Shown: positions 1 through 11,394 of the stretch, piece by piece | Position numbering within the stretch: the first letter of the stretch is position 1 | Layout of the letters: every line of letters starts with the position of its first letter | IMG/VR virus record: IMGVR_UViG_2531839129_000022 | Strand: one strand, 5' to 3' | Origin: a virus | Lineage: Duplodnaviria; Heunggongvirae; Uroviricota; Caudoviricetes | DNA: 11,394 nt | Notes under the pieces: model-generated | The model's input: the letters and a program-made list of their open reading frames with translations, nothing else | Database searches by the model: none | What the model was told of the DNA's origin: nothing | Translations under genes and position numbers: made by a program

Positions 1-49
1 GTCATACGCCGCCGGGCGGGGAATATCATGGGTATCCCCCTGCCAGAGT

Positions 50-388
50 TCAGCGAGCAGCAGCGCCACCGCCCGGTTCTGGTCTTCGTTCATAAATTTC
101 TTTCCTTCGGGTCTCCTGTTCCCGGACTGATGCCTTGTCGCGGTTGCACTGCCCGAGCGCCATCAACAGGTCAGCATTCCAGAGAAGGGATGCTCCCCAC
201 GTCAGGGGCTGTGGCATGGGCGGAACGGGCGTTGCTTCCGTCAGTTCTGCATCAGTTTCGGGCAGGAGCACCACCGATGGCACGGGTGCGTTTTTCGAGT
301 TCCCGCAACCTGTCAGCAGCAACGGCAGGCACAGGACGAGTGCTGCAATTGTCACCGGTAATGGCGGTTGTAATTTTTTGTTTTGCAT
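50..388 (-). CDS. o-spanin (Rz1-like outer-membrane lipoprotein), internal start within the 50..598 ORF
   Basis: From the internal Met (MQNKKLQPPLPVTIAALVLCLPLLLTGC...) the product has a signal peptide with lipobox LLTGC and a proline-rich mature region. It overlaps the 3' part of the i-spanin ORF in a different frame, directly downstream of the endolysin. Confidence 0.6.
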   Translation of the reverse strand: MQNKKLQPPLPVTIAALVLCLPLLLTGCGNSKNAPVPSVVLLPETDAELTEATPVPPMPQPLTWGASLLWNADLLMALGQCNRDKASVREQETRRKEIYERRPEPGGGAAAR

Positions 389-638
389 CATGATGTTCTG
401 TCTCGTCTGCCAGCCGTGCGGCACGATTTGCGGCACGGATAGCGGAAAATACCTGCATCGTCTGTTCCTGACCGTGTAACAACCATTCAGCAGTGTGGCG
501 GGCCTGTTGCTCCGTCTGTAATTCACGGCGCAGCGTCTGGTTATCGTGGCGGGTGCTGTCCAGCCTGTGCCACAACACCCCGGACAGAACGGCGGCAAAC
601 ACGGCAGCCAGCAGTAAACTTTTACTGGCGAAGGTCAT
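252..638 (-). CDS. i-spanin (Rz-like inner-membrane spanin subunit)
   Basis: 128 aa with an N-terminal hydrophobic TM segment (LLLAAVFAAVLSGVLW) followed by a charged, helical periplasmic region (RRELQTEQQARHTAEW...). Its start overlaps the lys 3' end by 17 nt. A G-rich Shine-Dalgarno precedes the ATG. Confidence 0.6.
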   Translation of the reverse strand: MTFASKSLLLAAVFAAVLSGVLWHRLDSTRHDNQTLRRELQTEQQARHTAEWLLHGQEQTMQVFSAIRAANRAARLADETEHHDAKQKITTAITGDNCSTRPVPAVAADRLRELEKRTRAIGGAPARN

Positions 639-1137
639 CCGCCCCCCTGATATTCCAGATAGCCATTTCCACTTCGCGACGGTTCATCAGTCCTTTCCAT
701 TTATGGCCTGCGGCAAACACCCAGCGGGCCATCTGGTCACGCGCTCCGGCGTAATCACCGGCATTGAGTTTTTTCAGCAGCGTTGATTTACTGAATGCGG
801 TAACACCGGTGTTGAAAATAAACGTTGCCAGCGCCGTTTTCTGATATGGCGTCAGCGGCACCCTGACAAGACGATCGATTGCCGCATAAACCGGTTTTAA
901 ATCACTGTCGAGAAGAGCCATACACTCCGCATGGCTGTAACGGCGCATTTCGATATCCGGCCCGGTATGTCCCACACAGACCGTAAGCACACCGGCAATA
1001 TCGCGGTAAGGCATATAAGCGATATTTTCCAGATGGATCAGAGACTGACGGGTCATTTCCTGATAACCACCCACACCGCCACCGGCAATCGTTGCCGCCA
1101 GCAGTGCGGCTTTCAGTTTTTTTGGTATCCCCGCCAT
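622..1137 (-). CDS. lys: SAR endolysin Lys (T4-lysozyme-like muramidase, GH24-type E...D...T catalytic triad)
   Basis: Translation MAGIPKKLKAALLAATIAGGGVGGY... has a Gly/Ala-rich signal-anchor-release segment, then HLENIAYMPYRDIAGVLTVCVGHTG with lysozyme-like catalytic E/D/T spacing. It matches the Mu endolysin as I recall it. Tandem ATG ATG at 1140..1135; the second is better spaced from the SD. Confidence 0.88.
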   Translation of the reverse strand: MAGIPKKLKAALLAATIAGGGVGGYQEMTRQSLIHLENIAYMPYRDIAGVLTVCVGHTGPDIEMRRYSHAECMALLDSDLKPVYAAIDRLVRVPLTPYQKTALATFIFNTGVTAFSKSTLLKKLNAGDYAGARDQMARWVFAAGHKWKGLMNRREVEMAIWNIRGADDLRQ

Positions 1138-1140
1138 CAT

Positions 1141-1231
1141 GCTTCCCTGAAAAAATGCGCTGATGGCAGTCTAAAAAATCAGATGGCAGGTGCGGGATTA
1201 TGGTGACAGGAAATAACCGGCAGGATGCCGG
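1141..1231 (-). promoter_or_regulatory. C-lys intergenic region; candidate C-dependent late promoter Plys (-10-like CATAAT at 1202..1197 on - strand)
   Basis: 91-bp gap between C stop and lys start. On the - strand a CATAAT hexamer sits 8 nt downstream of a perfect palindrome, with no obvious -35, as expected for an activator-dependent promoter. Confidence 0.4.
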
Positions 1232-1237
1232 TTATTT
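1211..1237 (-). promoter_or_regulatory. Perfect 12-bp inverted repeat AAATAACCGGCA-gga-TGCCGGTTATTT overlapping the C stop codon; candidate activator (C) binding site and/or middle-transcript hairpin
   Basis: Read directly from the sequence: arms 1211..1222 and 1226..1237 are exact reverse complements with a 3-nt spacer. Confidence 0.45.
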
Positions 1238-1654
1238 TGGGCTTTCAGGTGAGAACAGATCAGGCTGATGACGTCGTGTATGCAGCTTTCTCTGGCGGGC
1301 AATAATCTGGTAGATCTGCGGCTGGGACAGGCGATACTGGCGACGCAGTTCTTCCATGTTACGACCATTGAACTGGCAGTAAAGCAAATCGTCGCGTAAC
1401 GCGGTCAGGATCGTATCGCCGCAGGGGATGTAAAACTGCCGCCCGCCCAGAAAACAGGACAGGGCAACGGCCTGTTTACGGGCAAGCTCACGGGGATTGC
1501 TGACGTTCTGGCGTTTCAGTTCGTTTTCCAGAATATCAATCAGATCAACCACTGAACGGGGCCAGCGTGATTCCAGTTCCGGGGCCGGGATGTTATCAAT
1601 ATGCCCGATTAACTGGCGAATTGCCGGATCGTGTTCAAATAAATCATGCTGCAT
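1232..1654 (-). CDS. C: Late transcription activator C (Mor/C family)
   Basis: 140 aa MQHDLFEHDPAIRQLIGHID... The C-terminal block GGRQFYIPCG...NGRNMEELRRQYRLSQPQIYQIIAR is clearly paralogous to the Mor block GGGQVYIPRG...NGRNVSELTTRYGVTFNTVYKAIRR in the same window. A G-rich SD (CCGGGGGAAAAT) precedes the ATG. Confidence 0.9.
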   Translation of the reverse strand: MQHDLFEHDPAIRQLIGHIDNIPAPELESRWPRSVVDLIDILENELKRQNVSNPRELARKQAVALSCFLGGRQFYIPCGDTILTALRDDLLYCQFNGRNMEELRRQYRLSQPQIYQIIARQRKLHTRRHQPDLFSPESPK

Positions 1655-1669
1655 ATTTTCCCCCGGTTA

Positions 1670-1786
1670 ACAGACAAAAAGATACACCACGGCACTGATG
1701 GTTATCAGAACCACAAGGGCAATCACTTTTATCGCATTAATCAGCGTGGACGGCCCGAAACATTCATCACTGAATTTTCTGTACAT
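1670..1786 (-). CDS. Small hydrophobic ORF (39 aa, MYRKFSDECFGPSTLINAIKVIALVVLITISAVVYLFVC), possible single-pass membrane peptide in the middle operon
   Basis: Found by manual translation of the 217-bp gap between the upstream membrane ORF and C. It has an AAAGGGG SD-like element shortly upstream and a single hydrophobic stretch. It is below the ORF-track length cut-off, so support is weak. Confidence 0.25.
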
Positions 1787-1871
1787 GGTGCCCCTTTACC
1801 CGAACAGACGAGCGCGAAAACGAAAGGAGAGCCAGAACGTCAGCAATCCGGCCAGCGCCCAGATGACATAC

Positions 1872-2159
1872 TCAGGACCCGTTTTCAGTTGAGACGTTGC
1901 CATCACGGCTAATCCCAGCCCGGACAGCCCCCCCCAGCCAGGTCAGAGGCCAGACGAACCGGGCAAAATGTTCAGGCACCCGGCAGCTCATTATCAGCGC
2001 ATCCAGATAATCACCGGCAACACATAAAGCAACACTGAAAACCGAGGCACAGCAAAACATCAGCGCGCGCCAGCCACAAAACAGACTTATCCACAATAAC
2101 AGCGCCAGTAATACCACCGATAAAAAATCAGGCCACTGACGAGCAGAACGCTCAGACAT
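1872..2159 (-). CDS. Middle-operon small membrane protein (two predicted TM helices); start taken at MSERSARQ, which overlaps the upstream stop (ATGTCTGA)
   Basis: ORF track gives 1872..2210. The internal ATG at 2159 overlaps the TGA of the 2152..2370 ORF (translational-coupling arrangement). Hydrophobic segments: FLSVVLLALLLWISLFCGW and FCCASVFSVALCVAG. Confidence 0.45.
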   Translation of the reverse strand: MSERSARQWPDFLSVVLLALLLWISLFCGWRALMFCCASVFSVALCVAGDYLDALIMSCRVPEHFARFVWPLTWLGGAVRAGISRDGNVSTENGS

Positions 2160-2370
2160 AATGTTTCTCCCTGTAAAGCAGGCAATGATGAAGAATTTCC
2201 GGCATATCAACTGACTGCCAGCCTTTCATGTAATAACTGCCGTGGGTGCCATCATGACCGGTATAGTCGCGGGGCGCAGGACGTGGCCCACCGGCGACAC
2301 GGCGCAAAACCTCCTGACGCAGCCGCTCACGTCTGCCAAGATGAAAGGATGCATTCCAGCCTTTACCCAT
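2152..2370 (-). CDS. First ORF of the middle operon (72 aa, basic, function unknown)
   Basis: ATG at 2370 with GGGGAAAA about 6 nt upstream, located just downstream of the mor terminator/middle-promoter region. The product is Arg-rich with no recognisable domain. Confidence 0.4.
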   Translation of the reverse strand: MGKGWNASFHLGRRERLRQEVLRRVAGGPRPAPRDYTGHDGTHGSYYMKGWQSVDMPEILHHCLLYREKHYV

Positions 2371-2416
2371 GATGATTTTCCCCGGTACGGTTATTCATCA
2401 CAGGATATTGAGGACG
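2371..2416 (-). promoter_or_regulatory. Candidate middle promoter Pm core (Mor-dependent), between the post-mor hairpin and the first middle ORF
   Basis: Position is right for a Mor-activated promoter driving 2370 down to C. The - strand reads TCAATATCCTGTGATGAATAACCG with -10-like hexamers but no good -35, consistent with activator dependence. Exact boundaries are not determinable by eye. Confidence 0.35.
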
Positions 2417-2443
2417 TAAAAAAAGCCGGATTAACCGGCTTTA
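2417..2443 (-). terminator. Rho-independent-type terminator of the early transcript directly after mor (stem AGCCGG/CCGGCT, loop UUAAU, then U7 on the - strand); likely doubles as part of the Mor-binding dyad
   Basis: Read directly: + strand A7 (2418..2424), GCCGG, ATTAA, CCGGC, T. On the - strand transcript this is hairpin plus seven U. It begins 5 nt after the mor stop. Confidence 0.6.
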
Positions 2444-2447
2444 CTGT

Positions 2448-2837
2448 TTACAGAAGTGAGGGCTGGTACTGGCGGTATTTCAGCCGTCGCATCCGGCGAA
2501 TGGCCTTGTAAACCGTATTGAAAGTGACACCATAACGGGTGGTCAGTTCGCTGACGTTGCGACCGTTAAAATCATTCCAGATACGCAAATCCCGAATCAG
2601 CGAGTCCAGAACCTGACCGCGTGGAATGTAGACCTGGCCGCCGCCCAGATGCTTACAGATAGCCACAACAATCTCCAGTGAATGGGCAGGATCAACACCC
2701 AGCCGGGACAATTCCCCGCGCAGTAAATCGTTCAGCTCCGCCAGCAGTGCCGGAAAGCGTGACGTATCCTCTGCGGGATTGTCAAGATGTGCCAGGATGG
2801 TGTCATCCTGCAAATCACCAAATAAATCTTCCGTCAT
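2448..2837 (-). CDS. mor: Middle operon regulator Mor (Mor/C family transcription activator)
   Basis: 129 aa MTEDLFGDLQDDTILAHLDNPAEDTSRFPALLAELNDLL...; the C-terminal HTH block is paralogous to C. The start overlaps the gemA stop (ATGA). Confidence 0.9.
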   Translation of the reverse strand: MTEDLFGDLQDDTILAHLDNPAEDTSRFPALLAELNDLLRGELSRLGVDPAHSLEIVVAICKHLGGGQVYIPRGQVLDSLIRDLRIWNDFNGRNVSELTTRYGVTFNTVYKAIRRMRRLKYRQYQPSLL

Positions 2838-3385
2838 TGTGCCATCCTCCGCGTCTTTCTGGCATGGGCATAAGCCGCCGTCATGGCATCATAGCCGCGC
2901 AGTTCACGCCCGGACGGACTGACCGGCAATGGAAGCCCGTGACGGGAAAAGGCTTCACGAATACAGCGGATGTGCCACTGTTTCAGGGTTTCAAGCACAA
3001 CCTGCAACGATTCTCCGTGGCACCACGCCAGTGTGGAAACACCCTGTCCGCCGTTGCGTTTCGCTGTCAGGCGCTGAACATATTTATCCAGCGCCACATC
3101 ACCGCCATCGGTAATAAAACCGTCTTCTGCCATCTGCTGCCAGACTTTGTATACCTTCTCGCGGGGAGTGGCATACCCCTTAAAGCGGCGACGTGGATGT
3201 TTATTCAGCTTCTTAAAGCCGCGTTCTTTCATGGCATCGAGCACCTGTTCCAGTTGCGTGACCGTCAGCTCGCGGCAACTGGTTTTGCCCGTTTTCTGCA
3301 TCAGAAAAGCGCGGTAAGTGTCGTCGTCGAGTTGTAGCTCCCGACGGGCGACATGGATTAATTTAATCAGGGATGTGCGATTCAT
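2834..3385 (-). CDS. gemA: GemA (host gene-expression modulation protein)
   Basis: Translation from MNRTSLIKLIHVARRELQLDDDTYRAFLMQKTGK... matches Mu GemA as I recall it. Start chosen at 3385 because of a strong SD (GAGAGGTGAG-caa-ATG). The ORF-track N-terminal extension to 3553 has no RBS. Confidence 0.85.
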   Translation of the reverse strand: MNRTSLIKLIHVARRELQLDDDTYRAFLMQKTGKTSCRELTVTQLEQVLDAMKERGFKKLNKHPRRRFKGYATPREKVYKVWQQMAEDGFITDGGDVALDKYVQRLTAKRNGGQGVSTLAWCHGESLQVVLETLKQWHIRCIREAFSRHGLPLPVSPSGRELRGYDAMTAAYAHARKTRRMAQ

Positions 3386-3415
3386 TTGCTCACCTCTCAT
3401 ATTAAGGAATGAGAT

Positions 3416-3832
3416 ATGAAAATTGATTATGACGAGATAGCCAGAATATTTGATGTTTTTCTGGAGGCCGACACCGCATTCATTCGACTGGAAGATGTCG
3501 GCTGGGATTGTTCTCAGCGGCACAGCGACAGCCATCAGAAGCTGGTTTTCCATCTTCTGTTGCTGGTTGAAAATGGTTTTATCAGCAACAGATATCTGGA
3601 AACAGGCACCGCAAAAAGCATTGGTCTCACCCCAACAAGCCTCGGATATTCATATTCAGGCACCAGTGTCAGACTTACACAAGATGGTCATGATTTTGCG
3701 AAAGCACTACATCAAAAACCCATTCTTGAGCGCATAAAACAGGACCTTGCCGACGCCCCGATGACGCTCGTAACAGACGTCGGCAAACAGTGGTTAACCT
3801 CGTTTCTTAAAAAGAAACTCGGGATTGAATAG
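3416..3832 (+). CDS. Hypothetical protein, 138 aa, encoded on the strand opposite to the whole early operon (candidate accessory gene)
   Basis: It is the only substantial ORF in the 408-bp gap between gemA and the upstream early ORF; manual translation of all three - frames there gives nothing longer than about 25 codons. AAGGAA SD 7 nt before the ATG. Candidate extended -10 (TGgATTAAT, 3354..3362) inside the gemA 5' region. The stretch looks more AT-rich than its flanks by eye. No recognisable domain. Confidence 0.45.
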   Translation: MKIDYDEIARIFDVFLEADTAFIRLEDVGWDCSQRHSDSHQKLVFHLLLLVENGFISNRYLETGTAKSIGLTPTSLGYSYSGTSVRLTQDGHDFAKALHQKPILERIKQDLADAPMTLVTDVGKQWLTSFLKKKLGIE

Positions 3833-4120
3833 TTCCCTGTTCATACGTTGCAGCGCATCAAGGGCGGCGACAGCCGCCACTTTATTGTTACCATCAGCAA
3901 TAGTGCGGAGATTTTCAATAATCCAGTGAGGACTCAGTGACTCAGCAATAATGCCAAACCGGTACGCCATGACTTCATCAATAGCTTTTTCATGAGACGA
4001 CTCATATACAAAACTCACAAAGTCATGCACTTCTTTTTTCGGCAAACCACCAGCAATCAGCAGGGCGGCAAGCTCTTCTGATTTTGAAAATACACCATTA
4101 TTCATATCACTCACCTTCAC
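3794..4120 (-). CDS. Early-region hypothetical protein (108 aa)
   Basis: Same strand as the early operon; its start overlaps the stop of the upstream ORF by 14 nt (coupled). No recognisable motif. Confidence 0.5.
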   Translation of the reverse strand: MKVSDMNNGVFSKSEELAALLIAGGLPKKEVHDFVSFVYESSHEKAIDEVMAYRFGIIAESLSPHWIIENLRTIADGNNKVAAVAALDALQRMNRELFNPEFLFKKRG

Positions 4121-4865
4121 AATTCATGCACGCCGTGTCATCGCCCATATCGCAGTGGTTGCATTTCTGCCCGCCACAATGAGGGCACTCTTTCAGATAT
4201 TCAGGGGATTCATTCCCGCAGGTCGGGCATTCCTGTTTCACCGTGGTAAATGTCCCCGGCCACGAATACGATGTTTCACCGACTGTCTTTTTCCCCGTTA
4301 TTTCTGAATCAGAACTAATACAGTGTTTTTCAACCCATGCCACACGTGCTGAATTAAGGTGGCATCTGGCTAATTTGCTTTCGTTTATGTAATGTTCGCT
4401 CTCCCGGTTAAATGGCAATATCGCATTCAGCCCTGCTGAGATAAAGTCCGCATGTAATTGTTCTAATGCGGCTTCACTGTCTGCACCGGTTGATTCAAAA
4501 TAATCGTAAGCATTGGCACATAATCCGGCAGCCCGGATAAATACATCATCGCCCGTCTCCATTGCCCCATTCTTTAACCATTGGTTGTAGGCTGTATAAA
4601 AACTATAAAGTTGCTTTCTGATACAGGTAGTGGCAGTTCCGCCATTAACTGACGCTGGCGTAACATAGCCAGCTCTGCATAAAGCAGAACGAAGTATATC
4701 CAGAACCTGCCAGGCATCTTCTCCTTCAATCACGCTACAGTTTTTGTACACCAGGACGTCCCGGCCACAACTTTTATCAATACCCCAGTCTTCAAATTTC
4801 ACAACCAGCCTCCTGCACCACACCCGGTGCTGATGAAAAATCAATGATGAGATAACGCAGTACAT
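4107..4865 (-). CDS. Early-region protein with C-terminal double zinc-ribbon (four CxxC: CPTC, CPHC, CNHC, CMNC); function unknown
   Basis: 252-aa ORF from ATG 4865. An alternative GTG start at 4802 is preceded by AGGAGG with a 6-nt spacer and would overlap the upstream stop by only 11 nt. The Cys-rich tail is unmistakable in the translation. Confidence 0.55.
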   Translation of the reverse strand: MYCVISSLIFHQHRVWCRRLVVKFEDWGIDKSCGRDVLVYKNCSVIEGEDAWQVLDILRSALCRAGYVTPASVNGGTATTCIRKQLYSFYTAYNQWLKNGAMETGDDVFIRAAGLCANAYDYFESTGADSEAALEQLHADFISAGLNAILPFNRESEHYINESKLARCHLNSARVAWVEKHCISSDSEITGKKTVGETSYSWPGTFTTVKQECPTCGNESPEYLKECPHCGGQKCNHCDMGDDTACMNCEGE

Positions 4866-5331
4866 GGTCGGTGATATTCCAGGCGCCTGAACTGCAAATA
4901 AACCGCCCCAGCCAGATATCGATATAAGCCATCACAAAACGGGGCATTCCCTGTTTGCACATCTCGTCATCCACTTCTGCAACGATGTGAACGGACTCAC
5001 AGGTCAGCACGCCCGTCGCAAACTCTTTTGCCAGCGCGGGGATGGTATTACCTTCCACCCAGGGTAATGAGCGACGCCAGTTGCACCACACCGCATCATC
5101 AACAGCAGGCTGCTCAGTTGCGTTTCGTCTTACGGGCTGCTCTGTACGCGGGCGCGGTACGTCATAAAATCCGTTGCATTCGGTGAGCACTCCGGCATCA
5201 ACCGCATCACGCAGGAAATACACCATTGACGAGGGCAGCATATTCATTTTTTCAGCCAGAACGCCGCAGGTCAGACGCCCGTAAGCCCGTAATAATATGC
5301 TGACACCATTCAGAATTTTTGCATCAACCAT
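4792..5331 (-). CDS. Early-region hypothetical protein (179 aa) with a possible N-terminal winged-helix segment
   Basis: GAGGAA SD 6 nt upstream of the ATG at 5331. Follows gam after a 98-bp AT-rich spacer. N-terminal ILLRAYGRLTCGVLAEKMNMLPSSMVYFLRDAVDAGVL resembles a wHTH, but this is weak by-eye evidence. Confidence 0.5.
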   Translation of the reverse strand: MVDAKILNGVSILLRAYGRLTCGVLAEKMNMLPSSMVYFLRDAVDAGVLTECNGFYDVPRPRTEQPVRRNATEQPAVDDAVWCNWRRSLPWVEGNTIPALAKEFATGVLTCESVHIVAEVDDEMCKQGMPRFVMAYIDIWLGRFICSSGAWNITDHVLRYLIIDFSSAPGVVQEAGCEI

Positions 5332-5429
5332 GTTTTATTCCTCAGTAATCTGTTTCAGGCGCGAGCAATCCCCTGACGTATCGCGCCATAATTAAAAGAA
5401 TGTGAATTAATTAAATATTAATGGTGGTA

Positions 5430-5954
5430 TTAAATACCGGCTTCCTGTTCAAACGGAATAATGGAAAAATCTTCAATGCCTGATTTAACTGTAATTCCGG
5501 CAACACCTGCGACCGCTTTCGGTTCCAGCAAAATCGCTTCCTTGTTGATTTCCTGCTTCGTGCGAATAAAGCGTTGCAGGCCAAGACGCTCCAGCGTTTC
5601 CATCACTGCATCCATACCACGAATACTTACTGATGGTGGACGGACCCGCCACGATACATCACCGGTGACAAGATTCGCCGTCTTCACTTTGCCGCCGTTC
5701 GTCAGTTCGTCGCGGTTCGCTTCACACCATCCCTGAACGCCTTTTGAAAGGGTTTCAATATCGGTTTTAATCGGTGTAATCCGGGCCGCAAATTTCTCCG
5801 TAATTTCCGCGATGGCATCATTCATTTCCGTTTCCAGACGTGATGCTTCGCGCTGTAAATCCCCGATGCGTTTAATATCGGTAATCACCGCATCGCGGTT
5901 TTGTGGCATATAAGCCGCTGCGGCACTCTTGATGCGTTTTGCTGGTTTAGCCAT
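5430..5954 (-). CDS. gam: Gam, host-nuclease (RecBCD) inhibitor, Ku-like DNA-end-binding protein
   Basis: 174 aa MAKPAKRIKSAAAAYMPQNRDAVITDIKRIGDLQREASRLETEMNDAIAEI... matches Mu Gam as I recall it, in the expected position between B and gemA. Confidence 0.9.
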   Translation of the reverse strand: MAKPAKRIKSAAAAYMPQNRDAVITDIKRIGDLQREASRLETEMNDAIAEITEKFAARITPIKTDIETLSKGVQGWCEANRDELTNGGKVKTANLVTGDVSWRVRPPSVSIRGMDAVMETLERLGLQRFIRTKQEINKEAILLEPKAVAGVAGITVKSGIEDFSIIPFEQEAGI

Positions 5955-5973
5955 AAATTAAAGCTCCTGTTAA

Positions 5974-6273
5974 TTAATATCCGCTGTATACAATGCTGGA
6001 TACAGCCCGATTGCTTAATTCCATCTTTCGGGCAATGACATGAATATCCAGTCCTTCTTTATAAAGTTCACGACACAAATATTTGTCGTGTTCACTGATT
6101 CGGTATACACACAATGATATTCCGTGCCTTCTGGCATGTGCCCGGAGGGCGGTTGTGGCGACTTTCAGTTTTTCCGCCATTTCTTCAATGGTCATTTTCC
6201 CGACGTTGGCTTCGATAAATTCCCGGTCTTCGCGTGACCAGCGCTTACGATTACACTTCATGTCAGTCACCAT
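5974..6273 (-). CDS. Early-region small protein (99 aa) with HTH-like segments
   Basis: Start abuts the stop of the upstream ORF. Segments MTIEEMAEKLKVATTALRAHARRHGI and LDIHVIARKMELSNRAVSSIVY look like helix-turn-helix units. Confidence 0.5.
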   Translation of the reverse strand: MVTDMKCNRKRWSREDREFIEANVGKMTIEEMAEKLKVATTALRAHARRHGISLCVYRISEHDKYLCRELYKEGLDIHVIARKMELSNRAVSSIVYSGY

Positions 6274-6693
6274 TCAGTACAGCAGAGGCTCGCGCAGTGA
6301 TGCCGGAATATGCCGCAGCGATAACTGAACCGCTTTCAGGGCAAGCGAGGAATAACAGCAGCGCGCCCAGCCTTTTGCCATTAACCGGTAATCGCGCCAG
6401 ATACGCTGCCACATTTCACGGACTTTCTGGTCTGATGCGCAGATGTATTCCCGGTCCATGACGTACTCCCATAAATCCACGTTGAACGCACCGCCAGATG
6501 CAATGGCACGGGATATGCTTTCGCCGCAATAACGCGCACAGATGCTGTAATGGTCGAAAGTAATCAGGTAAGTTTTTTCACCATAGCCATCAACTTTTCG
6601 GGCGCAAATAAACTCGCGTAATTCACCGCCGTTGTTATTGCGTTTCTGAATTCGGATTAATGCCTGAATTTCATTTCGGATTTTGTTGTTCAT
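6274..6693 (-). CDS. Early-region hypothetical protein (139 aa)
   Basis: Same-strand ORF tightly packed in the early operon; no recognisable motif. Confidence 0.5.
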   Translation of the reverse strand: MNNKIRNEIQALIRIQKRNNNGGELREFICARKVDGYGEKTYLITFDHYSICARYCGESISRAIASGGAFNVDLWEYVMDREYICASDQKVREMWQRIWRDYRLMAKGWARCCYSSLALKAVQLSLRHIPASLREPLLY

Positions 6694-6707
6694 TGCCGGA
6701 ATTCCTT

Positions 6708-6971
6708 TCAGTGGCGTGTTTTTTCAACAGCCATTTCAGTGACACTGCCACCTGTGATGACACCATCGTTTTTCAAAATCTCAATGGCTTCATGAGCTGA
6801 CTCATTAATTATTTTCTGGCTTTTGTTAAGCACCAATAACGCCACCAGACCTGCAAGTGTAGCCTCATCCCCTTCCATTTCCACACTACCACCTACCGCA
6901 ATACTGGTGCGCAAATGCCGTCCTTTAGTTCCAGATACTGTATTTTTAATTTCAATAATTACCTTTGCCAT
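6708..6971 (-). CDS. Early-region hypothetical protein (87 aa)
   Basis: Same-strand ORF in the early operon, 14-bp spacing to its neighbour. Confidence 0.45.
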   Translation of the reverse strand: MAKVIIEIKNTVSGTKGRHLRTSIAVGGSVEMEGDEATLAGLVALLVLNKSQKIINESAHEAIEILKNDGVITGGSVTEMAVEKTRH

Positions 6972-6982
6972 TTTGTTTCTCC

Positions 6983-7186
6983 TTATTGATTAACGGGTGT
7001 TGCCTTTGTGCTTTTTACGTTCTTAAAGACATTTTCGCTGATGATGGGCGACATGCAGACCAGCCTGTGACCATCAATAAATTCAAAAGCAACACCACCC
7101 TCAACAGTCGTTTCCATTACACTGACATTATCAAGGTTGATTAACTTACTGATTCCCAGATTATCGTGAATGTTTATCACCATCAT
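6983..7186 (-). CDS. Early-region hypothetical protein (67 aa)
   Basis: Same-strand small ORF in the early operon. Confidence 0.4.
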   Translation of the reverse strand: MMVINIHDNLGISKLINLDNVSVMETTVEGGVAFEFIDGHRLVCMSPIISENVFKNVKSTKATPVNQ

Positions 7187-7193
7187 TAAAATG

Positions 7194-7421
7194 CTACCTC
7201 CAGATTATCTGACAACCATTAAGACGGGCCGTCCATACAGAACGGGCCACCCCGGACTTATGCTCCATAATCCTGACCGCGTTTTTTACCAGTTCCACCG
7301 GTGGGTAAGTGATTTCAAGAATCGGACGCGCCACGCCGAGATATGATTCATTTACATGACTCCCGCGCGCCTGTAACCAGTTCTGCGCATCCGTTGCCAT
7401 TTTTATATTTCGGGCCATCAT
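7194..7421 (-). CDS. Small early protein immediately downstream of B (75 aa); position and size fit the Mu Kil host-killing/cell-division inhibitor, but I cannot confirm the identity from sequence
   Basis: The ORF starts 15 nt after the B stop on the same strand. The kil assignment is from recalled Mu genetics (kil maps just after B, product about 8 kDa), not from sequence recognition. Confidence 0.5.
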
Positions 7422-7436
7422 AATTTCTTCTCCTTC

Positions 7437-8375
7437 TTAATTACGCAGCAGCGTTGAAATATCAACGTCCAGGTCTAATTCACGGAAAGCCTGACGCAGA
7501 TAATCTTCGTTAACACGCTCACCTTTACCGTGAGCCGTCATGGCGGCAAGGCGAAGTGAATGATTCAGAATGCGAAGCGCACCTGGTTTCTGCGCAATCT
7601 GCTGTAATAACTCCAGTTCATTTTCGCCGTTAATCTGCCAGGCATCCGCAATAGCTTTTACATCGGCTTTTTTTGTTTTATTAATTGCAGTACGCTTTGC
7701 AATACGGGAAAACAGACGGGCAAATTCAACCGTTCTGTTACCCCCCGTCATATTTGAATAAACCCGGTGATTTCCCATCAGTACAAGGCCAATACGGGTT
7801 GATTCCTGTAACAGGCGGAGTTCTTCCAGAACTTCGGCACCAAGATGATCAGCTTCGTCGATGATAACCAGCCCCTGTGTACCTTCAAGGCGACGTCGCA
7901 GGGCACGGGAGAGTGGCCCTTTACGGCGTGGTGCGTCATTCATTCCCAGCTCAAACGCCAGTTCAGTAAGACATTCCAAAACGCTAGCACAGGATGGCGT
8001 AATGGTGATCATCCAGACATTGTTATTGGTGCGGCGATATTCACGGGCCGCTTCGGTTTTGCCCACACCAGGATTGCCACATACAACAGCAATACTTTCA
8101 GTCAGGCTGGCAAAACGCATACTTGTCCAGATTTGTTTTACCGTCTGCGTTTCCACAAAGCGGGGCGGTTCAGGTAGTTCTGCAACTGCATGATATTTTT
8201 CCAGCCAGCGTTGCAGCATTTGTGAAACACGCTCGTTATCCCCGTTGTACTTATCATTGATAAAACTACTGATAGTTCCGGTAGAAAGTCCGCTCTCAAG
8301 AGCAATTTGTTTAAAGGTGGTTTCTTCATTTTCTACAAGCGTGCGCAGTCCTGCGCGAATATCGGAAATATTCAT
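7437..8375 (-). CDS. B: MuB transposition target-DNA activator (AAA+ ATPase)
   Basis: 312 aa. Walker A GNPGVGKT and Walker B LVIIDEADHL are present, with an N-terminal HTH-like region. Matches Mu B as recalled. Confidence 0.93.
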   Translation of the reverse strand: MNISDIRAGLRTLVENEETTFKQIALESGLSTGTISSFINDKYNGDNERVSQMLQRWLEKYHAVAELPEPPRFVETQTVKQIWTSMRFASLTESIAVVCGNPGVGKTEAAREYRRTNNNVWMITITPSCASVLECLTELAFELGMNDAPRRKGPLSRALRRRLEGTQGLVIIDEADHLGAEVLEELRLLQESTRIGLVLMGNHRVYSNMTGGNRTVEFARLFSRIAKRTAINKTKKADVKAIADAWQINGENELELLQQIAQKPGALRILNHSLRLAAMTAHGKGERVNEDYLRQAFRELDLDVDISTLLRN

Positions 8376-8413
8376 CTGAATAACCTCGTAATTAAATTTT
8401 GTTAAAACGTTAA

Positions 8414-10405
8414 TTAAATGACTTTTTTACGTCTGTTCTGTTCCAGAATATCCAGTGAATGATTCAGATATTCATCACGATCAGTTTCATATTCATCATC
8501 GGCTTCCTGGTATTTCACCTGCACCGTGTTACCGGAAGGCCGGAAAATACCAACAACCCTTGATTCTGGTGCTGCTGGTTCGGCTATCTGCGGCAGCAGT
8601 TCAGCAACTTCCAGCGCGTCCATTTGTTTCTGCGCCTTAATGGCTGCTTTAGTTGCAGATTTCAGTTGTTTCTGGCGGCGGCGATATTCACGGCCTGCCG
8701 CTGCATCATTAAACGCAACAGGTGCCAGACATTCCGCTTCACAGATAAACCGACCGTCCAGGGTGTAACAATAAACCGTGCTGTGTAGCTGCTGCGGATC
8801 AAACCTGACCACAACTTTTTTCACGCCGGCATTCATTAATGCCATGTTGTAATAAACGTTTTTCGCGCCTTTAAGGGAGCCGCCAACTTTAAGCGTAAAC
8901 TCGCCTTTGCGTGAAACGTTCACCGCCTCGGCAGGCAGTAACAGCATCCGTTTTTGTTCTTCGGTTGGCTTACGCACAATCGTTCTGGCGTATTCACGCT
9001 CGAAAACATCATCAAACGAGAGTTTGCCCCCGCACATTTCTGTTTCACGGCCTGTTCTGGCATTGAACATCGCCACACCTTCGGCAAGGGTTTTCAGAAA
9101 CAGCTCTGCATCAACAGCGCGGTCGCCATAGTTATCAGGTTTTGCCTGAGGATTTGGCCCCGTATATGCGCCAGCCAGTGCCGGATGCTTATCAACGTAT
9201 TCCTCAAGCCCACCAACACCGAAAGCACGTTCAACAGGTTTTGCCTGGCCCCAGCCTTTACCAGCAACAACGCTTGTCCAGTGCATTTTCGCACCCATCA
9301 GTAAAAACAGTCCCTTTGGATCGTCTTCTTTCACCTTAAAGCGGTAGCGATTGGGCGCGCCTCCCGTCAGCCATTTATTCGCTGCACCACGGGTGTTATC
9401 AATGGTGATGTGAAAATCCTCCGGGATACCGTAGCGAGTCACAACATCCATGAACGAGAGGCGAATTGAATCAATGTTCTCGCTCACATCGCAGCGCCAG
9501 CCCAGAATTTTTCGGGTTTTCACATCCTGCCAGAACCATGTTTTCGGGCGGATCACATCACCGTTAAACCAGCGTACAAAGACGTTATGCAGATAACCGT
9601 CGCCGTTGATCCACTGCATGGCATCCAGGTGTTCCACAGTTCGCTGTTGTGCCGGTATCAGATGCATCAGTGCATGTTCACCTTCACGGCAGGCAACAAC
9701 CATTGCCTCGTCCAGTTGCTGAATCCGGCGAAAGGCCGTGGCACGGGAGGGAATACTCCAGCCATGCTCGCGGGCTGCCAGTTCCAGACGCTCATAACAT
9801 TTGCGGAAGGCGGGTTTTTCCGGTCGCAGATAATCTGCGATCAGAAACTGCCAGGCATCCTCGTCAAATTCACTTTTGTGAACGTTGCGACGGGATGCAC
9901 CACGTCCATCAACAAGCGCAGCCGCCCAGTCAGGCTTCGCAAACTTCTGTACCTGGTAATACTTGTCCCGCAAAGTGGATGCGCTGACCTGGTAATGCCC
10001 TGCAACGGTCGCAAAAGCCGTTTTTGTTGAAATCCCCTGGTTCAGCATTTCGTCTGCAGCCTGAACCGCAGGCAACCATTTTTCAGCAAGTCTGCGCTGG
10101 GAATCGCTGGCGTTATCCCATTTGCTCCACAGTGCCTCACGATCATAATCATGGGCTTCCAGCGTGGGGCGGGCGATTTCAAAATACCCCAGGCTTGTTT
10201 CAATCTCTCCTTGTCTCAGCAATAACGCCGCTTTCGCTTCAACAGGTAAAGAGTTCGCATTGTATTCAATTGCTTTACCACCTTTGACACCTGCTCTAGT
10301 GCGGTTTTGCCATCCTTGCTTTTTAGCAACATAAATCACACCAGCCGATGTTTTCGGCAAACCAGGAAGATTCGCACACTCTTTCGGTGATACCCAAAGT
10401 TCCAT
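8414..10405 (-). CDS. A: MuA DDE transposase
   Basis: 663 aa from [32 protein letters not shown]... The ORF track starts three codons earlier at a GTG, but the ATG at 10405 has AGGTGA 5 nt upstream. The N-terminal domain is visibly homologous to the c repressor N-terminus in this window. Confidence 0.95.
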
Positions 10406-10406
10406 G

Positions 10407-10634
10407 TTATTCACCTGCTTGATATCGGCTAGGCCAGATTACTTCCGGTTTAGTTTCTAAGGCGTTAGCAATAATCTGCTCACCCTTTGGCCAGTGTCGT
10501 TCTAGCGCATTAGCTAATGTAGTTGGCGCATAACCAAACTGCCGGGAAAGAGCTGATAAAGAGAGCTTTCTTTTCTTAAGTCCCGCAATCACATCCGCAC
10601 GATGCCAATCACGGGCCTTTTCGTTGGAACACAT
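10407..10634 (-). CDS. ner: Ner, negative regulator of early transcription (small DNA-binding protein)
   Basis: 75 aa [48 protein letters not shown]... with an AGGAGG SD 8 nt upstream. The stop is 1 nt before the A start codon. Confidence 0.9.
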
Positions 10635-10803
10635 TTAAAAACCCTCCTAAGTTTTGTAATCTATAAAGTTAGCAATTTAACTAAGTGTAAAAACTTAGCT
10701 AGCTTGCTAAAAAGATAATTACTGAAAAGCTTTTTGTAAAGCTGCTTTTTGGTAAATTCCTTTGATTACTGATTAATGCATTGATAAATAAGGGGTTTAA
10801 ATT
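10635..10803. promoter_or_regulatory. Divergent control region between ner and c: repressor operators (O1-O3), early promoter Pe (- strand), repressor promoter Pc (+ strand); in Mu this region also acts as the transpositional enhancer
   Basis: AT-rich 169-bp gap between divergent c and ner. Repeated GCTTTT-n-GTAA-type motifs (GCTTTTTGTAAA 10728..10739, GCTTTTTGGTAAA 10744..10756, inverted TTACTGAAAAGC 10719..10730). Palindrome CTAAGT-gtaaaa-ACTTAG at 10681..10698. IHF-consensus match TATCAATGCATTA on the - strand at 10774..10786. Confidence 0.7.
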
Positions 10804-11394
10804 TTGAAAAGTAACTTTATAGAAAAGGGTGATACTGAAAAGTCAATTTGGTGTTCGCCGCAAGAAATTATGGCTGCTGATGGTATGCCTGGATCTGTTG
10901 CTGGTGTTCACTATCGAGCAAATGTTCAAGGCTGGACGAAGCGGAAAAAGGAAGGTGTCAAGGGGGGGAAAGCTGTTGAATACGATGTGATGTCGATGCC
11001 CACCAAAGAACGAGAGCAAGTTATTGCGCACTTGGGGTTATCCACACCGGATACTGGTGCTCAAGCCAATGAGAAACAGGATTCTTCGGAACTGATAAAC
11101 AAATTAACCACAACCTTAATCAATATGATTGAAGAGCTGGAACCAGATGAAGCACGCAAGGCACTGAAACTTTTAAGTAAAGGGGGGTTGTTGGCGTTAA
11201 TGCCTCTTGTATTTAATGAACAGAAACTTTACAGCTTTATAGGATTTTCACAGCAAAGTATTCAGACGTTGATGATGCTAGATGCATTACCTGAAGAAAA
11301 ACGCAAAGAGATTTTGTCAAAGTATGGGATTCATGAACAGGAAAGTGTTGTAGTACCTTCACAGGAACCACAGGAGGTAAAAAAAGCCGTATAA
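10804..11394 (+). CDS. c: Mu-type lysogenic repressor c (Repc), TTG start
   Basis: 196 aa (M)KSNFIEKGDTEKSIWCSPQEIMAADGMPGSVAGVHYRANVQGW... The N-terminal DNA-binding domain is homologous to the MuA N-terminus. The initiation codon is TTG, with AAGGGG about 9 nt upstream. The stop is the last codon of the window. Confidence 0.9.
   Translation: MKSNFIEKGDTEKSIWCSPQEIMAADGMPGSVAGVHYRANVQGWTKRKKEGVKGGKAVEYDVMSMPTKEREQVIAHLGLSTPDTGAQANEKQDSSELINKLTTTLINMIEELEPDEARKALKLLSKGGLLALMPLVFNEQKLYSFIGFSQQSIQTLMMLDALPEEKRKEILSKYGIHEQESVVVPSQEPQEVKKAV

Follow-up and report, generated by a model that had tools for sequence, protein, structure and literature searches.

The open reading frame at 3416..3832 in the early operon of a Mu-immunity, Mu-like prophage is, by comparative sequence evidence, a genuine protein-coding gene under purifying selection that is oriented against the operon around it. 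It is best read as an independently acquired accessory ('moron'-type) gene, lodged in a recombination-defined slot directly upstream of gemA. The window, i.e., the whole stretch of DNA analyzed, comprises 11,394 nt of IMGVR_UViG_2531839129_000022, and coordinates count from its first letter (Table 1). Its early operon is read on the - strand, with the gene order from right to left ner, A, B, kil, gam, early genes, gemA, mor, a t9.2-like terminator, and the middle and lysis genes. The window GemA shares 96% identity with GemA of SfMu and D108 and 93% with that of Mu. The ORF under study and the c repressor gene are the only credible + strand genes of the window. In the equivalent prophage stretch of E. 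coli SE11 all other annotated genes lie on the operon strand, in line with the preliminary description, which had singled out the ORF as the exception.

Table 1. Coordinates of the features discussed, counted from the first letter of the window.
Feature	Position	Strand	Remarks
t9.2-like terminator	2442..2422	-	after mor
mor	2448..2837	-	
gemA (gp16 family)	2834..3385	-	divergent from the + ORF; 'gp16 family protein' in SE11
Earlier candidate extended -10, TGGATTAAT	3354..3362	+	inside gemA; weak
Mosaic cassette, 470 bp	3386..3855	.	gene with 30 bp upstream and 23 bp downstream; blastn breakpoints
Shine-Dalgarno-like AAGGAA	3404..3409	+	6 nt before ATG 3416; direct sequence reading
DUF2513-like/PHROG 585 ORF	3416..3832	+	ATG start, 138 codons plus stop; 138-aa product, pI 5.9
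Convergent neighbour, 103 aa, phrog_1988	3794..4105	-	39-bp overlap of its last 13 codons with the + ORF 3' end
GC-rich hairpin, GGCGGCGACAGCCGCC then ACTTTATTGT	3863..3878	+	31 nt after the stop codon; terminator scan
Mu c repressor gene	10804..11394	+	193/196 residues identical to Mu repressor c (98%)

The ORF with its ATG, 138 codons and stop was read again directly from the sequence, as were the 408-bp gap that separates the gemA start (3385) from the - strand ORF next upstream, whose stop is at 3794, and the convergent overlap of 39 bp (3794..3832), all as first described. The Shine-Dalgarno motif assigned to it is also present, but its spacer counts 6 nt and not 7. The start codons of gemA and of the + ORF are 30 bp apart and the spacer between them holds the ribosome-binding sites of both divergent genes. 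Because the starts lie so close together, the promoter or 5' leader of either gene must fall within, or antisense to, the other. The earlier statement that the - strand of the gap has no ORF longer than about 25 codons was inexact: a 42-codon ORF with a GTG start lies at 3535..3663 and the gemA frame is open upstream to 3553. Neither this ORF nor the upstream extension of the gemA frame found any support as a gene.

The coding status of the ORF follows from its relatives and from the way in which they differ. The PHROG 585 family HMM gives a full-length match to the product, in which residues 1-137 align with profile positions 1-127 of 128 at E 5.5e-31 (108.5 bits). A word-indexed search yielded 29 full- or near-full-length homologues with 30-99% identity, nearly all of 133-146 aa, and a profile search among 1.8 billion representatives reached about 450 clusters (counted at 50% identity) at E<=1e-3, almost all of them single-domain proteins of 125-150 aa. 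When the window gene is compared with that of locus L007, whose protein is 62% identical, the differences are distributed as 41/23/72 over codon positions 1/2/3 of the + frame; changes among near-identical gene copies are likewise mostly at the third position. The ATG and the Shine-Dalgarno motif are conserved, and L007 agrees with the window in all of the 27 nt that precede the ATG, despite the 62% protein identity. The exact gene sequence is also present in the IMG/VR contigs L023 and L024. Full-length homologues down to about 30% identity together with the third-position bias put the ORF beyond chance. The earlier view of a real gene set against the early operon is thereby borne out by the PHROG 585 match, the homologues and the codon-position bias, and the + frame is kept across Mu-like phages, including distant ones. 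That the ORF is a chance frame or an untranslated antisense shadow of a - strand feature, for which the failure to find a promoter and the 42-codon - strand ORF might be cited, can practically be dismissed, since hundreds of full-length homologues, the third-position substitution bias in the + frame, the confident predicted fold and the conserved ATG and Shine-Dalgarno motif refute it as far as sequence analysis reaches.

The gene has not been overlooked, since RefSeq already names it in E. coli SE11 (WP_000687313.1, 'DUF2513 domain-containing protein') on the strand opposite to all 22 neighbouring CDS. It is one more case of a known kind of cargo gene, and the annotation of the locus needs no revision, as the accessory gene is already there. 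Its membership in Pfam DUF2513 (PF10711; a model of 100 positions with a gathering cut-off of 29.6 bits) is nevertheless indirect, because the window protein itself remains below the cut-off with 15.8 bits (E 0.018, residues 39-110 only). The link runs through its homologues. Eighteen of the 24 aligned homologues match DUF2513 at E<=0.01 (best 3e-6), the profile-search relatives P0109 (48.4 bits) and P0167 (34.5 bits) exceed the cut-off, and more distant family members above it also match YjcQ (PF09639). The window protein thus shares with DUF2513/PHROG 585 the full-length phrog_585 match, the connection via homologues and the name given by the NCBI pipeline, but differs from the Pfam family in its low score and in a C-terminal extension of about 35 residues (two to three helices) past the end of the DUF2513 model. 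NCBIfam gave no match for the window protein, and no second Pfam domain occurs in longer family members. The Pfam DUF2513/YjcQ and PHROG 585 entries give no function, and no paper was found under the name DUF2513.

The product is predicted to be a small soluble protein with a winged-helix core. AlphaFold2, run with an alignment of 24 sequences, returned a model with a pLDDT of 92 and a pTM of 0.83. It begins with three helices, of which the second is short and the third long; an elaborated wing containing three short strands comes next, and three C-terminal helices close the chain. The alignment itself carries signatures of winged-helix domains (…LLLLVENGlIS… and RLTqdGHDFA). An acidic stretch (e.g., EGEEED in homologues) is located just before the putative recognition helix, and the family as a whole is acidic, with a median pI of 5.4 over 154 proteins of 120-150 aa. 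Both features weaken a classical DNA-binding model, and on the predicted structure DNA-binding and protein-binding roles appear equally open. Foldseek searches against the PDB and BFVD gave no significant match, and PDB sequence profiles produced chance-level matches only. A comparison with PadR/MarR/HxlR regulators, STIV F93 and TubR points in two directions. The motifs that end the recognition helix and the wing are present, and the C-terminal helices could mediate dimerisation as in PadR. However, identity amounts to only 11-21%, Foldseek gives E>=0.05 with TM 0.3-0.4, the wing of the window protein is long (~25 residues, with an extra helix and hairpin), and these regulators differ from it with respect to the acidic stretch before the recognition helix and the family pI of ~5.4. 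Across the contexts examined there is no conserved partner gene that would suggest toxin-antitoxin or operon logic; the protein therefore presumably acts alone, in the cytoplasm, by binding nucleic acid or another protein.

The borders of the insertion are sharply drawn. In blastn comparisons Mu, D108, SfMu, FDAARGOS_1059 and JCKP02 are homologous to the window up to 3385, which is the first base of the gemA start codon; homology resumes at 3856 (SfMu type, JCKP02) or 4096 (Mu, D108). From the breakpoints 3385 and 3856 it follows that the cassette (3386..3855) includes, besides the gene and the 30-bp spacer, the final ~20 codons of the convergent neighbour. There is no DNA homology between 3386 and 4095 to the genes that Mu has between gp13 and gemA (Mu_54, Mu_14). 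When the protein was compared by tblastn with the corresponding loci of Mu, D108 and SfMu, nothing was matched (E>0.1) and no gene remnants came to light. The convergent neighbour, phrog_1988, occurs without this gene in SfMu and JCKP02. Among 72 complete E. coli genomes with Mu-like prophages sharing the gemA flank, only five carry the cassette and the others have different inserts. The variable cargo suspected at the outset is therefore what is found, with other sequence at the slot in Mu, D108, SfMu and JCKP02. In base composition the cassette is not atypical: its GC content of 45.3% compares with 54.7% for gemA, 43.6% for the other neighbour and a window mean of 49%, and corresponds to the 19th percentile of 470-bp windows.

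Other Mu-like phages use the same position for different genes. Mu and SfMu have an unrelated 88-aa opposite-strand ORF in the slot (gp16 in SfMu, WP_021578945.1 in E. coli), D108 has an unannotated opposite-strand ORF of 119 aa in a 376-bp 'empty' gap, and the JCKP02 slot holds no opposite-strand ORF. The cassettes of Mu/SfMu and D108 resemble that of the window in their place upstream of gemA, in facing backward and in a 3' end that overlaps the convergent neighbour (39 bp in the window, ~62 bp in Mu/SfMu, ~53 bp in D108). Their ORFs, in contrast, lack sequence similarity to the DUF2513 protein, and none of the three alternative slot ORFs showed homology to DUF2513. The preliminary description had left open what the Mu reference holds at this locus. 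The comparison gives neither a homologue nor an annotated opposite-strand gene: the record shows Mu_54 (55 aa) on the operon strand, antisense to the 88-codon ORF. Mu_54 has no PHROG match, and the substitution pattern offers too few differences to decide between the strands of Mu orf88 and Mu_54. We found no literature on Mu transcript data for the slot upstream of gemA. A precise mosaic slot is thus defined at the gemA start codon, which repeatedly hosts backward-facing genes in Mu-like phages. What the reference records of Mu (Mu_54) and D108 (empty gap) show at this slot should be looked at again; annotation gaps are probable in both.

In distant Mu-like phages homologues with 31-62% identity retain both position and orientation. 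Where GemA is only 31-46% identical, as in prophages of the Mu-like type from E. coli, Salmonella, Citrobacter and others, the homologue (46-54%) is still found directly upstream of gemA on the opposite strand, mostly with the 39-bp convergent overlap retained. A convergent overlap of 39 bp (or 30 bp) recurs in L007, L008, L012, L040, L044 and L048, and in L061 and L092 the homologue is situated between gemA and mor. Terminator-like hairpins on the operon strand lie between the gene and gemA in L012 and L008-11. An extra + strand ORF of 134 aa in L011 was considered as a paralogue and rejected.

The family is spread well beyond Mu-like phages. In a lambdoid prophage of Serratia symbiotica the homologue lies on the opposite strand between the antiterminator Q and holin genes, and in P2-like elements it lies on the opposite strand within the baseplate operon, between the gene for the gpV-like spike and those for the gpW-like sheath initiator and baseplate J; a 94-aa ORF adjoins the gpV-like spike gene there. 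Other homologues follow repressor genes. In L038 the gene immediately before the homologue, on the same strand, encodes a CI-like HTH+S24 repressor. In L057 and L097 the homologue comes straight after Arc/Mnt-like genes that diverge from an antirepressor gene, and in L037 straight after an Arc/Mnt-like gene. In model phages such positions are expressed in the lysogen, with cI-rexAB of lambda and mnt of P22 as the examples. On marine bacterial chromosomes homologues stand in defence islands, with the candidate defence gene PDC-S19, a pair of SymE toxin-antitoxin genes and a CBASS of type I as neighbours (L018-20), one homologue being located directly upstream of a CBASS operon, or with a PDC-S02-like nuclease as neighbour (L089); other chromosomal copies are surrounded by housekeeping genes. 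The defence HMMs of PADLOC-DB 2.0 matched neither the window protein nor the homologue P0025, and their only matches were among the neighbours of chromosomal homologues (PDC-S19, the CBASS cyclase with a 2TM effector, and the PDC-S02-like protein). In phage-plasmids of 46-52 kb, where ParB-like genes are nearby, the homologue and its neighbours share one orientation, and co-orientation is also seen in some lytic-type contexts.

Orientation was counted over 20 homologue clusters, formed at 90% identity and flanked by 2.5 kb or more in both directions. Twelve are clearly opposite to both flanks, 13 when the window type is added, and about 15 with two more 'mixed' clusters. The window-type cluster had itself been scored 'mixed' through a spurious 219-codon antisense ORF inside gemA and was reassigned by RefSeq annotation. 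Overall, the family tends to face lytic operons or to follow lysogeny repressor genes directly.

This counter-orientation, in combination with the placement behind lysogeny repressors, fits expression in the prophage state rather than rapid early expression. We rate the chance that the window holds a real accessory gene expressed from the prophage state as somewhat better than even, and from its genomic setting the protein would most likely be a product of the lysogen rather than of lytic growth. The gene would have a transcript of its own, reading in the direction of c and starting within the gemA 5' end or past it, and this would be made in the repressed prophage, while c shuts off the early promoter Pe. 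Upon induction, transcription driven by Pe would run head-on through the gene and silence it, which would result in a simple switch that is on in the lysogen and off in lysis. The gene's own leader would at the same time be antisense to the ribosome-binding site and translation start of gemA.

The signals for such a transcript are less clear. The extended -10 element proposed in the preliminary description (TGGATTAAT) is indeed present inside gemA, but it is a poor match that promoter scans missed. The A expected at position 2 of a -10 hexamer is missing from its ATTAAT, and L007 (TGAATTAAC) has lost the T at position 6. Neither a consensus scan nor a more lenient scan detected a + strand sigma-70-like site upstream of the ORF in the window. 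Consensus scans of homologous loci placed -10-like elements 42-54 nt ahead of the ATG in several of them. Downstream, the hairpin at 3863..3878 (RNA fold z-score -2.8) is a possible, equivocal terminator for the + transcript. The assignment is confounded by coding constraint on the other strand, where the hairpin encodes the conserved AAVAAL motif of the neighbouring protein, and the T-tail behind it decays in L007 and L008. The window has no Rfam match and nothing remarkable in the way of local repeats.

Morons and lysogenic-conversion genes are familiar from rexAB, bor and lom of lambda, sieA/sieB of P22, and old, tin and fun(Z) of P2. A moron in the sense of Hendrix and Juhala is a single gene placed between two genes that are adjacent in related phages, with its own promoter and terminator, a composition unlike that of the adjacent genes and expression from the prophage as further criteria (PMC4378225). 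The window gene agrees with this picture in being inserted between genes that are otherwise adjacent or differently separated (breakpoints 3385 and 3856/4096), in its variable presence, and in an orientation or placement that fits expression from a repressed prophage. It departs from it in the unremarkable composition of its cassette. Promoter scans were negative in the window, with -10-like elements at several homologous loci, and the only terminator-like hairpin lies in conserved codons of the neighbour. The position of some homologues directly behind an immunity repressor parallels the textbook case of lambda rexAB behind cI. SieA, SieB and RexB, however, are membrane proteins, whereas the window protein is predicted to be a soluble winged-helix protein.

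As for the function of the product, protection of the lysogen against other phages, by exclusion or defence, is a plausible reading of the genomic contexts to which we would give a little less than an even chance. A candidate functional analogue exists in another transposable (Mu-like) phage with opposite-strand genes. The olg1/sie1 genes of the Pseudomonas phage Fc02 are read from the same strand as the repressor and run antisense to the early lytic operon, are expressed in the lysogen according to strand-specific RNA-seq, and confer superinfection exclusion (PMC9936078). They differ from the window gene in their location beside the repressor and ner instead of gemA and in encoding unrelated proteins, and transcript and phenotype have been shown for Fc02. 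A transcription-type regulator of host or phage genes is a more tentative proposal that the predicted fold would allow.

In its host-directed form this proposal holds that the prophage encodes a transcription factor that reprograms host genes, as a lysogenic conversion unrelated to phage defence. The winged-helix fold with the '...L..L.enGlI...' and 'RLT..G' motifs of PadR/MarR/HxlR-type domains, the positions typical of lysogen-expressed genes and the solitary gene without a partner would all suit such a factor. We consider it unlikely nonetheless, as both the surface and the N-terminal end of the putative recognition helix are acidic, Foldseek shows no significant full-length similarity to any regulator, and the defence-island neighbourhoods would be left unexplained.

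Alternatively, the insertion may serve the development of the phage itself at the gemA-mor boundary, where the protein, an antisense leader or head-on transcription would tune read-through from the early operon into gemA/mor and thereby determine when early expression gives way to middle expression, or keep Mor switched off in the lysogen. The strict synteny with gemA, even where GemA is only 31-46% identical, speaks for this, as does the location between gemA and mor in L061 and L092. With starts only 30 bp apart the two transcripts must overlap in antisense, operon-strand hairpins resembling terminators accompany the gene in L012 and L008-11, Mu/SfMu and D108 have other backward-facing ORFs at the same slot, and the fold is of the PadR/MarR class. 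Yet the family also resides in lambdoid, P2-like, phage-plasmid and non-phage chromosomal contexts that have neither gemA nor mor. The gene is moreover dispensable for Mu development, since the JCKP02-type slot is without a backward-facing ORF and most E. coli Mu-like prophages do not have the gene. A developmental role is thus decidedly improbable in our estimate.

The preliminary description had thought of host-interaction or anti-defence cargo. The cargo character of this suggestion has held, but a protein that blocks host immunity when the phage infects or is induced is less likely than one that works in the prophage state and, taken by itself, a slim prospect. A small, acidic, single-domain protein that is variably present in an accessory slot of the early region would suit such an inhibitor, and the homologue directly upstream of a CBASS operon could be cited in favour. 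On the other hand, the gene faces early and late operons in most phage contexts, homologues are placed behind lysogeny repressors, and the chromosomal copies in defence islands argue for a role on the host side. No named anti-defence protein was among the matches, in libraries that included no dedicated anti-defence set.

Beyond the single locus, the protein with its prophage-state expression preferred here belongs to a compact and widespread phage family (~450 clusters at 50% identity) whose genomic habits point to a role in the prophage state and which therefore provides a lead. A bolder generalization, which we put forward with reservation and think doubtful, is that DUF2513/PHROG 585 constitutes an unrecognised family of single-gene prophage effectors (exclusion/defence or immunity-linked regulators) that has repeatedly entered lytic operons of unrelated temperate phages in head-on orientation, and that the gemA slot is a dedicated backward 'lysogeny cargo' slot common to Mu-like phages, Mu included. 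If so, Mu_54 would be annotated on the wrong strand and the D108 slot ORF would be unannotated cargo, and induction would turn the cargo off because the cargo gene and gemA are transcribed antisense to each other. The conserved backward slot, the Mu/D108 annotation gaps and the family-wide orientation bias are side results worth a modest follow-up. The slot ORFs of Mu and D108 share a weak match to phrog_32893.

Opposite-strand reading frames occupy the slot directly upstream of gemA in both reference Mu and D108. In reference Mu an 88-codon ORF, running counter to the early operon directly upstream of gemA, matches phrog_8747; SfMu, as gp16, and E. coli prophages both have this ORF annotated on the strand opposite to the operon. 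The Mu record has Mu_54 (55 aa), which lies antisense to it and finds no match in PHROG; the Mu annotation may have chosen the wrong strand at this site. The corresponding interval of D108, an unannotated gap of 376 bp between gene 14 and gemA, contains a 119-codon ORF that overlaps gene 14 by ~53 bp. Both the D108 and the Mu ORF share a weak match to phrog_32893 (E 5e-7 and 6e-4).

Features in the window and in the compared loci (L-numbers)
Feature	Location	Coordinates	Strand	Remark
119-codon ORF	D108, L003 (NC_013594.1)	1953..2312	+ in locus	opposite-strand; phrog_38610
88-codon ORF	reference Mu, L002 (AF083977.1)	1936..2202; record ~7896..8162	+ in locus; complement in record	phrog_8747
GC-rich palindrome GGGCGGCGACAGCCGCC	window; same place in L007, L008	3856..3880 (window)		encodes AAVAAL in neighbouring protein
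252-codon ORF	window	4107..4865	-	phrog_6418
134-aa ORF	Salmonella Mu-like prophage L011	4982..5386	+	second opposite-strand ORF, gemA-mor interval
Intrinsic-terminator-like hairpin	L008-L011	~5945..5975	-	strong
Intrinsic-terminator-like hairpin	L012	5747..5725	-	strong
Intrinsic-terminator-like hairpin	L021	5911..5888	-	strong
Expected early promoter Pe	window	10740..10712	-	sigma-70-like site
Defence island	L018-L020			PDC-S19 candidate, SymE-type toxin-antitoxin pair, DUF2513 homologue, type I CBASS

The right-hand breakpoint of the mosaic cassette that holds the DUF2513 gene coincides with the palindrome, which could therefore act as a recombination linker. It forms an island of DNA conservation shared by the window, L007 and L008, relatives that are otherwise diverged. 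Further upstream in the operon, the region of the 252-codon ORF is another mosaic segment in the window. The window shares this ORF with the window-type IMG/VR contigs. Mu gp13 (phrog_5584) corresponds to only its C-terminal ~60 residues, and the SE11 annotation has several small ORFs in this region. At the DNA level, positions 4279..4808 have no match to Mu, D108 or SfMu.

One Salmonella prophage carries a second opposite-strand ORF, located between gemA and mor. Its product has no match in Pfam, PHROG or PADLOC and is unrelated to DUF2513. In two other loci (L061 and L092) the same position is occupied by a DUF2513 homologue itself.

In three lineages the DUF2513 gene and the next operon-strand gene, either gemA or a holin gene, are separated by strong operon-strand hairpins that resemble intrinsic terminators; the 30-bp spacer of the window has no such hairpin. 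Sigma-70 consensus-like sites are depleted over the whole window (1..11394): the count is 5, where shuffles give an expectation of 14.6 +/- 3.7. One of these five falls on the expected early promoter Pe.

In three marine metagenome contigs (L018-L020) the DUF2513 homologue is situated within a compact defence island, of which the SymE-type pair is found in L018 and partly in L020. The type I CBASS consists of a Cap15-like 2TM effector and a cyclase; the DUF2513 gene is co-oriented with the effector gene and precedes it by 147 bp.
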